Numbered from the stretch's first letter, positions 21,767 to 25,414 are shown. The stretch: DNA of 64,000 nt from an uncultured Chthoniobacterales bacterium (GCA_964552635.1 CAZKHB010000015.1:15619-79618); one strand, 5' to 3'. The notes: generated by a model from the letters alone, not told the origin. Translations and numbers: made by a program.

Positions 21767-22885
21767 GTGAGCGAAGAATCCCCCGCGATCGAAGTGGTGG
21801 ACCAGCAGGAGGTCCGCACGCTCGAGCATGTTGACCAGTATCTGGCCATTGGCAAAGAGTCCGAGGCCTCCGACATTCACCTCTCTGTGAACTCCCGCCC
21901 GGTGTGGCGCCGGTTCGGTCTTCTTGAGCCGATCTGGCAGCAGGCTCCCATGCTGACGGCGGAGGACACCGAACGGCTGGCGATGGGGTTTTTGAATGAC
22001 GCCCAGCGCGCACTTCTGGAGGAACGTGGCGACGTGGACTTTGCGTATTCGAACGCCATGGGCCGCTTCCGTACAAGCGTCGTCCGCCAGCGCCTCGGCT
22101 ACGAACTCGTATTCCGCATCATCAACAGTACCGTGCGTTCGATGGACGAGCTCGGGCTTCCTCCGCAACTCAAGCTCCTCACCCAATACCACAACGGCCT
22201 CGTGCTCGTGACGGGATCGGTCGGCAGCGGAAAGAGCACGACGCTCGCCGCCCTCGTGGATGAAATCAACCGCGCCCGCCGCGACCACATCATCACGCTG
22301 GAAGATCCCATCGAATACATCATCCCCTCGAAAGGATGCCACGTGACGCAGCGTGAAGTGCACACGCACACGAAGTCCTTCGCCAACGCCCTCCGTGGTG
22401 CCCTGCGTGAAGACCCCGACGTGATCATGGTCGGGGAAATGCGCGACCTGGAGACGATCTCGCTCGCCATCACCGCCTCGGAGACCGGCCACCTCGTGCT
22501 CGGTACGCTGCACACCAGCAACGCCGCCCGAACGCTCGACCGCGTGCTCGACGTCTTCCCCACCGACCAGCGCGACCAGATCCGCATCATGGTGAGCGAA
22601 TCCCTGCGCGGCATCGTCTCCCAGCAACTCATCCCCCGGGCCGACGGCCGCGGCCGCGCACTCGCCATCGAGATTCTCATGAATACGCCCGCCGTCGGCA
22701 ACGTCATCCGTGAGGCGAAAACGTTCATGCTCCCCGGCATTATCCAGACCGGCCGCAAGCTCGGCATGCAGCTCATGGATGACTCCATCAAAGAGCTCTA
22801 CGAGGCCGGCACCATCTCCGCGGAAGAGGCCGTCTACCGCGCGGAACAGAAACAACTGATGCTGCAAATCACCGGACAACTCTGA
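21767..22885 (+). CDS. pilT: type IV pilus retraction ATPase PilT
   Basis: GLVLVTGSVGSGKSTTLAALVDEIN...IITLEDPIEY...DPDVIMVGEMRDLETI...GHLVLGTLHTS. Confidence 0.85.
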   Translation: MSEESPAIEVVDQQEVRTLEHVDQYLAIGKESEASDIHLSVNSRPVWRRFGLLEPIWQQAPMLTAEDTERLAMGFLNDAQRALLEERGDVDFAYSNAMGRFRTSVVRQRLGYELVFRIINSTVRSMDELGLPPQLKLLTQYHNGLVLVTGSVGSGKSTTLAALVDEINRARRDHIITLEDPIEYIIPSKGCHVTQREVHTHTKSFANALRGALREDPDVIMVGEMRDLETISLAITASETGHLVLGTLHTSNAARTLDRVLDVFPTDQRDQIRIMVSESLRGIVSQQLIPRADGRGRALAIEILMNTPAVGNVIREAKTFMLPGIIQTGRKLGMQLMDDSIKELYEAGTISAEEAVYRAEQKQLMLQITGQL

Positions 22886-22888
22886 GCC

Positions 22889-24067
22889 ATGGCCTACATC
22901 GACCAGTTTTTCAAAGTCCTCATCGAAGCCGGCGCTTCCGATCTCCACCTCGGCGAGGGCCAGCCGCCGAAAATCCGCCGCCACGGCGAGATCATCCCCA
23001 TCCGCGAAGAGTTTCTCACAAACGAGGAGATGAGTTTCATGCTCCGCGAGATCAGCGGCGACCGGCGCTGGCAGAAGTTCGAGGAGCACGGCGACCTCGA
23101 CTTCGCCTACGAGATGGACGAGGAGAACCGCTTCCGCTGCAACTATCTCAAGCAGACCAACGGCTACGGTGCCGTCTTCCGTATCATCCCCACAAAAATC
23201 AAGACGCTGGAGGAACTCGGCGTCCCGCCGGTCATCAAGACGTTCGGTCACATGCGCGGCGGGCTTGTGCTGGTCACCGGACCCACCGGCTCGGGCAAGA
23301 GCACCACGCTCGCCGCCCTTATCGACTACATCAACTCGAACTTCTCCCGCCACATCGTCACCGTCGAGGAGCCGATCGAGTTCGTGCACCGGAACAAGCT
23401 CAGCACCATCACGCAGCGCGAAGTTCCCGAGCACACGCCTTCCTTCCCCATCGGCCTCAAGGCCGCCCTGCGCGAGGATGCCGATATTGTGCTTGTCGGT
23501 GAAATGCGTGACTTGGAGACCATCTCTCTCGCCCTCACCGCCGCCGAGACCGGACTCCTCGTCTTCGGCACCCTGCACACGAACAACTCCCGGAAGACCG
23601 TTGACCGTATGGTCGACGTCTTCCCCGCCGACCAGCAGGCCCAGGTGCGGACGATGCTCTCCGCCTCCCTGCGCGGTGTTGTCGCGCAGCTCCTGATGAA
23701 GAAGCAGGACGGCAGCGGACGTGTCGCCGTGAACGAGATTCTCGTCGTGAACAACGCCGTCGCCGCCATCATCCGCGAGGGAGCCACCCAGAAGCTCCAG
23801 GACGTCATCGTTGGAGGGAAAGGCGAGGGCATGCAGTTCATGGACGACGCCATCTGGGAGCAACTTGTTGCCGGAGCCGTCTCGCCCCACGAGGCCTACA
23901 TGAAGGCCATCGACAAGAACCGCTTCAAGGCCTTCCTCCCGCCCGAGGAGGCGGACCTCGCAAATGCCGCCGGCGTGCCCGATGATGTCGACCACAGCGA
24001 ACTCGGGAAGAAGCAACCCACGCTCCGGCCGAAGACCGCTCCGGCCCATAACCAGCGCGCCACCTGA
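22889..24067 (+). CDS. pilU: PilT/PilU-family ATPase paralog
   Basis: GLVLVTGPTGSGKSTTLAALIDYIN...IVTVEEPIEF...DADIVLVGEMRDLETI...FGTLHTNNS; 3 nt after pilT. Confidence 0.8.
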   Translation: MAYIDQFFKVLIEAGASDLHLGEGQPPKIRRHGEIIPIREEFLTNEEMSFMLREISGDRRWQKFEEHGDLDFAYEMDEENRFRCNYLKQTNGYGAVFRIIPTKIKTLEELGVPPVIKTFGHMRGGLVLVTGPTGSGKSTTLAALIDYINSNFSRHIVTVEEPIEFVHRNKLSTITQREVPEHTPSFPIGLKAALREDADIVLVGEMRDLETISLALTAAETGLLVFGTLHTNNSRKTVDRMVDVFPADQQAQVRTMLSASLRGVVAQLLMKKQDGSGRVAVNEILVVNNAVAAIIREGATQKLQDVIVGGKGEGMQFMDDAIWEQLVAGAVSPHEAYMKAIDKNRFKAFLPPEEADLANAAGVPDDVDHSELGKKQPTLRPKTAPAHNQRAT

Positions 24068-24075
24068 GTCCCCCC

Positions 24076-24999
24076 ATGCGGGCCCTGCTCCACATCCGCC
24101 CCCCGGCCGGCGAACCGTTCGAAGTCGAGATCGGCAACACCGCCACCATCGGCCGCGGTCGTGACAACACGGTGAGCCTGGCGACGAGCCCGCTCGTCTC
24201 GCGCCAGCACGCCATCATCCGCTGCCACAACTCCTGGCAATACCAGATCATGGACCTCGGCAGCCGCAACGGGACGTTTGTGAACGGCCGCCGCGTCATC
24301 ACCCCAGTGACCCTCGACGAAGGTGCGGCCATCCGGGCCGCCGATACCGAGATCACCTTGCGCCTTCTGGAGTCCCCCGAGGCCGGGCCGCTCGCCGAAA
24401 TGACGATGGCCGCCGGGACGTCGGTCGCCGGCGACCACACAGCTACCGTCGCCGTCATGGTCTGCGACATCCGCGGCTTTTCCACGATGTCCGAGATCCT
24501 TCCCGAGGACCAACTCGCCCGCACACTCGGCGATTGGTTCCGCCAAGCGGGTGACATTTTGCAATCCGAGGGCGGCTCCATCGACAAATTCATCGGTGAT
24601 GCCGTCCTCGCCTATTGGGTGCAGGCGGCGGGCGAGCCCGGTGAGGAAGCCCGCCGTGCTTTTGCCGCCGGTGTGCGACTCCTTGAGACCGCCGCCGGAC
24701 GCCGCTGGCCGCACGATGCCACCGCCCCGTTCCGCATCGCCGTCGCGCTTCACCACGGGCCCGTCACCTGCGGAAACATCGGTCTCGTCGCCCAGCGCGA
24801 CGCCACGATCATCGGCGACACGGTGAACACGGTTTTCCGCATGGAGGGTGTGATGAAGCAATTCGACCAGCGCCTCACCGCCTCGGCAGATTTCGTCTCT
24901 CTCCTCGCCACGCCGGAACGCGAACGCTTCGAGGACCTCGGCGAACACCAACTCAAGGGCAAGAACCAGCACGTCCGCCTCGCCGGACTCCGCCCCTGA
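24076..24999 (+). CDS. FHA domain / class III adenylate-guanylate cyclase fusion protein
   Basis: N-terminal FHA (TIGRGRDNTVSL...VSRQHAIIR...IMDLGSRNGTFVNG). C-terminal cyclase (VMVCDIRGFSTMSE, KFIGDAVLAYW, GDTVNTVFRME). 8 nt after pilU. Confidence 0.75.
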   Translation: MRALLHIRPPAGEPFEVEIGNTATIGRGRDNTVSLATSPLVSRQHAIIRCHNSWQYQIMDLGSRNGTFVNGRRVITPVTLDEGAAIRAADTEITLRLLESPEAGPLAEMTMAAGTSVAGDHTATVAVMVCDIRGFSTMSEILPEDQLARTLGDWFRQAGDILQSEGGSIDKFIGDAVLAYWVQAAGEPGEEARRAFAAGVRLLETAAGRRWPHDATAPFRIAVALHHGPVTCGNIGLVAQRDATIIGDTVNTVFRMEGVMKQFDQRLTASADFVSLLATPERERFEDLGEHQLKGKNQHVRLAGLRP

Positions 25000-25003
25000 T
25001 CCC

Positions 25004-25414
25004 ATGCGCCACTTCAAACCCGGACGCGGCCCCTCGGCCATGGGTGCCTTCGGGGGCATCATCGGCGTGCTCTTCGGCATATTCTGGACCGTTATGGCCT
25101 ACTCGATGACGCGGAATGCCCCCGAGCCCTTCGCCACATTTTTCCCGTTGTTCGGCGTCCTGTTCGTCCTCGTCGGAATCGTGAATGTCGCCTACAACCT
25201 CTACAACGCGACGCAGAAGAAACGTCTCTCACTCCTCGATCTCACCTCGCCCTCCGAAGAGGCCGATCCGCTGGGGGAAATCGTCGACCGGACCGGGGGC
25301 GACGATGGCTCGGTCGAATCGAAACTCCGCGAACTCAATGCCCTCCGCGACAAAGGTCTCGTCACGGACACGGAATACGCCGCGCAACGTCAGCGCATCC
25401 TCAACTCCCTCTGA
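25004..25414 (+). CDS. membrane protein with C-terminal SHOCT domain
   Basis: Two TM helices, then KLRELNALRDKGLVTDTEYAAQRQRIL (SHOCT-like); 4 nt after the cyclase gene. Confidence 0.5.
   Translation: MRHFKPGRGPSAMGAFGGIIGVLFGIFWTVMAYSMTRNAPEPFATFFPLFGVLFVLVGIVNVAYNLYNATQKKRLSLLDLTSPSEEADPLGEIVDRTGGDDGSVESKLRELNALRDKGLVTDTEYAAQRQRILNSL

Follow-up and report, generated by a model that had tools for sequence, protein, structure and literature searches.

We analysed a 64,000-nucleotide stretch of DNA from an uncultured Chthoniobacterales bacterium (GCA_964552635.1, CAZKHB010000015.1:15619-79618), referred to below as the window, in which positions 21,767 to 25,414 carry four closely packed genes. 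They encode two PilT-family ATPases (pilT-a and pilT-b), a class III adenylyl cyclase with an FHA domain, and a small SHOCT membrane protein. PilT paralogues are hexameric ATPases that power the retraction of type IVa pili. An original prediction, made from the sequence, had described the four genes as one operon in which a cyclic AMP (cAMP) or cyclic GMP (cGMP) output would be tied to pilus retraction or surface sensing. We examined the proteins themselves, the arrangement of their genes in related genomes and the remainder of the window.

Organization of the four-gene block

The genes, the two domains of the cyclase and the region ahead of the block are located as follows.

21672-21766, plus strand: divergent intergenic region of 95 nt, 5' of pilT-a, presumed operon promoter region
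21767-22885, plus strand: pilT-a, 372 aa, GTG start; PilT-family type IVa pilus retraction ATPase paralogue
22889-24067, plus strand: pilT-b, 392 aa; second PilT-family ATPase paralogue, with a variable, low-complexity C-terminal tail
24076-24999, plus strand: FHA-domain class III (IIIb-type) adenylyl cyclase, 307 aa, predicted to be soluble
24145-24336, plus strand: FHA domain of the cyclase (residues 24-87), PF00498; phosphothreonine (pThr)-binding residues G26-R27, S42-R43-x-H45 and N65
24436-24969, plus strand: cyclase homology domain (residues 121-298); D131/D175 for metals, K171/T244 for substrate, N251/R255 for the transition state
25004-25414, plus strand: SHOCT small membrane protein, 136 aa; two predicted transmembrane (TM) helices and a C-terminal SHOCT motif

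All four open reading frames (ORFs) were recovered on one strand exactly where the original prediction had placed them, with the same stop-to-start gaps of 3, 8 and 4 nt; the corresponding junction letters are TGAgccATG (3 nt), TGAgtccccccATG (8 nt) and TGAtcccATG (4 nt). The NCBI gene calls give identical protein lengths (372, 392, 307 and 136 aa), and an alternative gene caller places the start of the fourth gene at 25040, yielding a protein of 124 aa and a gap of 40 nt. Gene calling in high-GC loci required GC3 > GC1 > GC2. An antisense ORF of 793 aa that runs over the pilT genes (21668-24049; GC1 0.83, GC3 0.65) was rejected as a non-coding shadow frame.

On its 5' side the block is bounded by a divergent gene for a CxxCxxCC-domain protein (21348-21671, minus strand) and on its 3' side by a convergent nrdG/nrdD pair (25401-27887, minus strand; 14-nt overlap with the SHOCT stop), and for this reason we treat it as a discrete four-gene unit. 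In GC content it matches the genome around it. The region 21672-21766 is the sole sizeable non-coding gap ahead of the four genes, and the promoter would lie within it. No Rfam element or tRNA was found in the whole window, and Rfam was also blank for 21672-21766. The first three genes, pilT-a, pilT-b and the cyclase gene (hereafter the trio), are probably transcribed as one message and translated together.

The FHA-domain cyclase and the two PilT paralogues

The cyclase matched the Pfam families FHA (PF00498, 67 bits) and Guanylate_cyc (PF00211, 44.3 bits; cutoff 21.9). Its best solved relatives by sequence were the adenylyl cyclases OaPAC, bPAC, CyaB and CyaC, with a phmmer E-value of 5e-18 against OaPAC. 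The motifs CDIRGFS and FIGDAV, in which the original prediction had seen intact metal-binding aspartates, are present, and alignment with OaPAC confirmed that assignment for D131 and D175. The blocks DI..FS, KFIGD and RD.T..GD.VN..R.E matched throughout, and K171, T244, N251 and R255 likewise fell on their equivalents, with no loss of a catalytic residue. K171 lies within KFIGD, and T244 lies within RDATIIGD at the G-3 position; the OaPAC counterparts read KFIGD and RDYTILGD. All six catalytic residues are invariant among 15 family members (62-100% identity), as are the FHA residues G26, R27, S42, H45 and N65 in the same alignment.

Among class III enzymes, Lys together with Asp or Thr specifies ATP, and Glu together with Cys, Ser or Gly specifies GTP; Lys combined with Thr marks the IIIb adenylyl cyclases. 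Because Lys171 and Thr244 specify ATP, the predicted product is cAMP and not cGMP, and the OaPAC alignment would thus settle the choice that the original prediction had left between the two nucleotides. Both a guanylyl cyclase and a dead enzyme were ruled out: none of the six canonical residues is missing, and the Lys/Thr pair is the one expected for ATP. An AlphaFold model of only moderate confidence (mean pLDDT 66) shows a beta-sandwich of 11 strands and, after it, a core of beta-alpha-beta-beta-alpha-beta topology. The top Foldseek match of this model is Pseudomonas aeruginosa CyaB (3r5g; E 1e-11, target-normalised TM-score 0.73-0.77), and its cyclase fold also matches OaPAC and CyaC.

The FHA domain keeps all of its pThr-binding residues, in agreement with the suggestion that it could bind a pThr partner. 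Most likely the domain docks a pThr made by a Hanks-type Ser/Thr kinase, which would gate dimerisation or activity of the cyclase. Proteins of this family are ~305 aa long, and the family is large and well conserved in Verrucomicrobiota, across Chthoniobacterales. An exhaustive HMMER search over 1.84 billion cluster representatives found 169 matches to the protein at E <= 1e-30. Because most of these are full-length matches (the majority 300-345 aa), the compact FHA-cyclase is a widespread, established architecture.

Both ATPases scored 424 bits against the TIGR01420 pilT_fam model (cutoff 319) and covered profile positions 2-341 of 343. The original prediction had named the pair pilT and pilU. 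Two PilT-family retraction ATPases are indeed encoded, but the second is probably a PilT paralogue rather than PilU: PilT-b scored 322 bits against P. aeruginosa PilT (3jvu) and 240 bits against PilU (9n32), and the corresponding scores of PilT-a were 307 and 250 bits. Since both proteins are closer to P. aeruginosa PilT and are 48% identical to each other, we consider them probably two PilT paralogues, and a PilT plus PilU pair was set aside on the higher PilT score of each.

Motifs were checked by aligning 56 PilT-a and 77 PilT-b orthologues to P. aeruginosa PilT. PilT-a has an intact Walker A, Asp box, Walker B and His box (ETGH...TLHT), all kept in the 56 orthologues; its Walker A sequence is unusual (GSVGSGKST) and stable across orthologues. 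PilT-b keeps all motor motifs except the first His of the His box, which is replaced by Leu (ETGL, L222) in at least 90% of the 77 orthologues (L082-L161; loci are cited by such numbers throughout). Of the AIRNLIRE-type C-terminal motif, just the IRE core is retained (AVGNVIRE in PilT-a, AVAAIIRE in PilT-b). By these alignments, PilT-a and PilT-b are stable and apparently sub-functionalised PilT paralogues.

Gene arrangement in related genomes

A scan centred on the cyclase, taking one genome per species, returned 80 loci with 51-73% identity, labelled as Chthoniobacterales, under another Verrucomicrobia-level name, or as a member family such as Terrimicrobiaceae. By tblastn, the pilT pair stands directly 5' of the cyclase gene in only four of them (L001, L002, L005 and L006), all among the closest relatives, and the trio is absent from the other 76. 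In 71 loci the sequence extends 1.2 kb or more ahead of the cyclase gene; pilT lies directly upstream in three of them, and L002 is an additional partial case. Two metagenomic relatives also carry the trio, L162 (86% cyclase identity), in which the pilT-b C-terminus ends 11 nt 5' of the cyclase, and L163 (72%); in a further relative, L164 (70%), the pilT pair was not found. With the window locus (WIN), the trio is thus present in seven loci (WIN, L001, L002, L005, L006, L162 and L163), with a pilT-b-to-cyclase gap of 0-42 nt. The carriers, few in number and related to one another, are Verrucomicrobia from soil and freshwater (Chthoniobacterales/Terrimicrobiaceae). Conservation beyond this strain, on which the original prediction depended, therefore holds for six other related loci with different flanks, but it does not extend past one small clade, and among five distant FHA-cyclases (30-46% identity; a small sample) none had a PilT-family neighbour.

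The fourth gene does not share even this distribution. The SHOCT match is marginal (PF09851, 27.6 bits against a cutoff of 27.0), no NCBIfam model matched, and the 90%-identity cluster of the protein has 3 members. No homologue was found by tblastn in 160 related loci, and the gene is missing from L162, the nearest relative. Because SHOCT is absent even there, the conserved unit is three genes and not four, and SHOCT is a strain-specific gene added at the 3' end in this strain. A conserved four-gene operon was ruled out by its absence from all related loci; what survives of the four-gene arrangement is a tight block in this strain, and the trio beyond it.

The position of a small TM protein directly after the cyclase, together with a score of 81 bits (E 1.8e-23) for the cyclase domain on the PADLOC PycC model PDLC00734, above its 44 bits on Pfam Guanylate_cyc, fits a Pycsar-like anti-phage pair, in which infection would lead a PycC-type cyclase to make a cyclic pyrimidine and the SHOCT protein, with its two TM helices, would act as an effector that disrupts the membrane. 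We regard this reading as extremely improbable. A Pycsar system needs an adjacent effector in which a cNMP-binding domain is fused to TM or TIR; the SHOCT protein has no cNMP-binding domain, and none of the related loci contains it. The cyclase has been inherited vertically within one order, in at least 80 species-level genomes and with an effector neighbour in none, a pattern that defence genes do not typically show; the sole cNMP-binding neighbour in the 80 loci, in L054, has no TM or TIR fusion; the specificity residues fit purine (ATP) cyclases such as OaPAC; and the window has no defence-island context. On the lack of a cNMP-binding effector and the vertical conservation of the cyclase, the Pycsar pair was ruled out. 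As a separate observation, PycC models cross-match housekeeping class III cyclases.

The same question was then asked from the side of the ATPases, with PilT-b as the query against metagenomes, and 80 loci were recovered (L082-L161; 75-89% identity). The pilT-a gene lies directly 5' of pilT-b in 61 of the 68 loci with enough sequence, and an FHA-cyclase lies 3' of pilT-b in none of the 59 with enough downstream sequence. Because pilT-b so regularly keeps pilT-a and never has the cyclase in these loci, the pilT pair and the cyclase are independent units. The usual 5' context of the pair comprises genes for small membrane proteins of the DUF883_C (ElaB/YqjD-like) and Phage_holin_3_6 (YqjE-like) types and a third small gene without a Pfam match; the usual 3' context is a type III pantothenate kinase gene followed by a DnaE-like gene of ~1157 aa, named by eye (for example L106, 2914-7192). 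Spacing is sometimes as tight as -4 to +18 nt, and many different genes follow pilT-b even at 85-89% PilT-b identity. From these contexts we conclude that the pair is an autonomous cassette whose 3' flank is a rearrangement hot spot.

The cyclase has company of its own. In the loci without the trio the upstream gene varies, and the commonest neighbour, in 34 of the 80 loci, is a convergent gene for a fusion of FHA, ABC_tran and ABC2_membrane domains (FHA-ABC), then an OmpA-like gene. Loci with this neighbour include L006, L009, L016-L018, L025-L027, L030-L036, L055-L056 and L059, and further L063, L073, L076, L078 and L080; in L030, for instance, it occupies 2544-4481 on the minus strand. In seven loci a 1050-aa kinase with Pkinase and Sel1 domains, different from the kinase of the window, is encoded just 5' of the cyclase. 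FHA-ABC and Ser/Thr kinase genes around the cyclase look like a conserved kinase/FHA signalling neighbourhood, from which the window locus has lost the FHA-ABC gene. Locus L006 carries both arrangements, the pilT pair 5' and FHA-ABC 3' of one cyclase gene; this identifies the trio cyclase as an orthologue of the stand-alone cyclase and indicates that the pilT pair moved into the cyclase locus.

Taken together, these observations lead us to favour, as the probable explanation, a fusion into one operon, specific to this lineage, of two units that are each conserved without the other. The first would be the tandem pilT-a/pilT-b, a self-contained two-gene cassette found among housekeeping genes in related Verrucomicrobia, and the second the compact soluble adenylyl cyclase, with a IIIb catalytic domain behind an N-terminal FHA domain. 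In one Terrimicrobiaceae-like clade the pair would have arrived immediately 5' of the cyclase gene, and on a shared message the capacity to make cAMP would rise and fall with the retraction motors. Co-expression of cAMP synthesis with these motors is likely, and it is the presumed co-transcription that suggests a physiological link between retraction and cAMP. The fusion is most likely recent, probably of a single origin, and confined to the small clade. In the neighbour-joining tree built from 48 core sequences of PilT-b, with PilT-a as the root, the four full-length trio-linked proteins formed one monophyletic group in 90 of 100 bootstraps, which fits a single origin.

The flanks of the trio differ in every genome that carries it, with at least five flank configurations, and rpmI-rplT-pheS, which lies 5' and on the opposite strand in the window, lies 3' and on the same strand in L005, marking an inversion. 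Because the gap stays at 0-42 nt while the flanks differ, the three genes travel as a block, and the cyclases inside the clade have diverged to ~70% identity. These data bear on the possibility that the arrangement is a meaningless juxtaposition, in which a rearrangement put the pilT pair beside the cyclase, read-through has no selected consequence, and the order persists because the clade is young and breakpoints within gaps of 0-42 nt are rare. Such an account agrees with the narrow, monophyletic distribution, with the varied neighbours found 3' of pilT-b even among close PilT-b relatives, and with the SHOCT gene, which shows a single-strain gene gain at that position. Survival of the trio through at least five flank configurations, one of them inverted, and the divergence of its cyclases, which argues that the clade is not extremely young, make it improbable in our estimation.

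Several observations weigh against a recent fusion of two units. In the cyclase tree the branch of the window sequence is long and monophyly of the trio was recovered in only 16 of 100 bootstraps; the arrangement may thus have been gained once and later lost by the 12 species of a sister clade, which would make it somewhat older. That the trio was kept through flank rearrangements could mean that it is a selected functional unit rather than a neutral one. At the level of expression, no obvious Shine-Dalgarno sequence was found at any of the three junctions, the plus strand of 21672-21766 showed no sigma-70 consensus, and promoter and terminator scans gave no informative sites above shuffled expectation. 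Finally, the question of pilus machinery or of a second pilT pair was covered within the 64-kb window only.

The same retention of the block while both flanks reshuffle, and the tight spacing in all seven trio loci, also speak for a dedicated motor-to-cyclase module. Here the FHA domain would read the state of PilT-a/PilT-b, phosphorylated or conformational, or that of a partner at the pilus base, and cAMP would be made on retraction or surface contact, as a short-circuited counterpart of the PilT/Pil-Chp/CyaB pathway in P. aeruginosa. Precedents exist: in P. aeruginosa the ATPase activity of PilT modulates cAMP through a class III cyclase (PMC10187167), and in Synechocystis the adenylyl cyclase Cya1 controls type IV pilus motility (PMC7690835). 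The best structural match of the catalytic domain, moreover, is P. aeruginosa CyaB. We nonetheless consider a dedicated module rather doubtful. The cyclase is absent from all 59 informative pilT-b loci and ~95% of cyclase loci have no pilT; there is no independent recurrence in the five distant FHA-cyclases; and no trio-specific feature, such as a pThr docking motif, was found in the C-terminal tail of PilT-b, the tails being variable in trio and non-trio loci alike. The commonest neighbours of the cyclase, FHA-ABC transporter and Ser/Thr kinase genes, point to a different signalling circle, and the literature searched gave no paper joining PilT, an FHA domain and adenylate cyclase. A more specific proposal, to which we assign a low probability, is that the trio senses mechanical events as a minimal module: a pThr on a PilT paralogue or a pilus-base protein would be bound by the FHA domain, and retraction would directly activate the cyclase with no Pil-Chp relay. 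PilT-b, the His-to-Leu form, might on this proposal be a signalling rather than a force-generating subunit.

Window context and known signalling systems

The remainder of the window contains four further features of interest for pilus biology or cAMP signalling.

49568-50449, plus strand: N_methyl plus DUF1559 protein, the sole prepilin-type ORF in the window
36967-40917, minus strand: Ser/Thr kinase with Pkinase, TPR and LamG domains
8773-9504, plus strand: calcineurin-like metallophosphoesterase (Pfam Metallophos), candidate cAMP phosphodiesterase
9481-10002, minus strand: stand-alone cNMP-binding protein, 173 aa (cNMP_binding, 48 bits), candidate cAMP receptor

Called ORFs of 70 aa or more were scanned with Pfam across the 64-kb window, apart from ORF 63314-63958 at its edge and a few short ones, and none was recognised as a pilin, pilB/C or pilMNOPQ gene. 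This bears out the statement of the original prediction that no pilus genes are adjacent and that the locus is not one for pilus biogenesis. The ORF at 49568-50449 sits inside a glycoside-hydrolase/transporter cluster (GH5, GH3, GH130, rhamnosidase, SSF, MFS); it is a typical PVC 'pseudopilin-like' gene, outside any pilus operon. The Ser/Thr kinase that had been noticed elsewhere in the window is real; it lies 12 kb from the operon, on the opposite strand and with no conserved linkage.

The metallophosphoesterase and cNMP-binding genes are convergent and overlapping, ~14 kb upstream of the cyclase. The cNMP-binding protein has CNB-domain relatives in the PDB. For the metallophosphoesterase no solved relative was found by sequence, cAMP phosphodiesterases included, and its possible assignment as a cAMP phosphodiesterase is tentative for that reason. 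In L054, an orthologue of the metallophosphoesterase (63% identity) lies 45 nt 3' of the FHA-cyclase on the same strand, and next after it comes a convergent orthologue of the cNMP-binding gene (59% identity; L054 801-2051). This single locus provides independent genomic support and suggests that the cyclase, the metallophosphoesterase and the cNMP-binding protein form a set for the synthesis, turnover and reception of cAMP.

Two other regions of the window stood out. The stretch between 28000 and 36000 may be atypical, perhaps through horizontal acquisition: its GC content is 0.53-0.58, against ~0.63, several of its ORFs have no Pfam match, and it encodes a DUF4852 protein, a protein with a CAP domain and one of 1045 aa with a LamG domain (31760-34897, minus strand). 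At 14601-19451 (plus strand), just 5' of pheS-rplT-rpmI, lies the gene for a surface-type protein of 1616 aa, whose domains are Golvesin_C, PKD and PATR (autotransporter passenger repeat); many shadow ORFs that result from the high GC overlap it.

All component families are known; what is new is the cis-arrangement only, and it is phylogenetically shallow. The P. aeruginosa pathway that runs from PilT/PilU through PilJ/Pil-Chp and CyaB to cAMP/Vfr shares with the window the association of a PilT-family motor with a class III adenylyl cyclase, which here is purely genomic. In P. aeruginosa, however, a chemosensory system makes the link and no single operon holds the genes, whereas the window is without Pil-Chp genes and the association is confined to one clade. 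P. aeruginosa CyaB is membrane-anchored and is not known to carry an FHA domain; the window cyclase, in contrast, is predicted to be soluble and would be FHA-gated. Cya1 of Synechocystis is probably a compact FHA plus cyclase protein of ~340 aa, which fits the widespread architecture noted above; in the literature searched, confirmation of its FHA domain was not found. To our knowledge, cya1 is not beside pilT genes and acts by transcriptional control of minor pilins. In Synechocystis sp. PCC 6803, cAMP made by Cya1 controls type IV pilus-dependent motility (phototaxis) through CRP-like receptors (PMC7690835).

A different cyclase, Bdellovibrio bacteriovorus DgcB (PDB 6hbz), has an FHA domain directly N-terminal to a GGDEF cyclase domain, which belongs to the same fold superfamily as that of the window protein. 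Full-length DgcB ranked 50th in the fold search, with a root-mean-square deviation of 17.8 Å and query- and target-normalised TM-scores of 0.31 and 0.35, a poor alignment. The DgcB FHA domain binds a phosphorylated peptide, which leads to activation of the cyclase, and the same mechanism is proposed for the window cyclase. DgcB makes cyclic di-GMP via its GGDEF domain, whereas the window protein has a class III cyclase homology domain and would make cAMP.

Tandem pilT-pilU genes for PilT-family hexameric ATPases, encoded away from pilB/pilC, have been described (PMC6821130, PMC6762196). The window pair shares this tandem placement away from pilB/pilC. Known sets of several PilT-family ATPases are PilT with PilU in Vibrio cholerae and P. 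aeruginosa and the multiple PilTs of Geobacter and Myxococcus. It differs from PilT/PilU pairs in that both proteins score as PilT and that PilT-b bears the conserved His-to-Leu change in the His box. On the side of the cyclase, the pairing of FHA-ABC, sometimes with a kinase, beside the FHA-cyclase of Chthoniobacterales, a neighbour lost in the window, resembles the Mycobacterium tuberculosis PknF/Rv1747 module, in which a Ser/Thr kinase is paired with an FHA-ABC transporter; the mycobacterial module is not known to include a cyclase.

In the phylum Verrucomicrobia, pilus biology and cAMP signalling are almost unstudied. If the coupling is real, the wiring from retraction to cAMP would be far simpler than the multi-component Pil-Chp system of Pseudomonas, and the trio would offer a compact three-gene system for the study of how retraction motors report surface contact. 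The main value of the finding is cautionary: tight packing at this locus would reflect a recent local joining, and annotating the trio as a conserved pilus-signalling system would be unwarranted. The broader lead may come from the wider setting of the cyclase, as the recurrent placement of the FHA-cyclase by FHA-ABC transporter and Ser/Thr kinase genes, together with the phosphoesterase/cNMP-binding series of L054, points to an axis from Ser/Thr kinases to cAMP in these bacteria.

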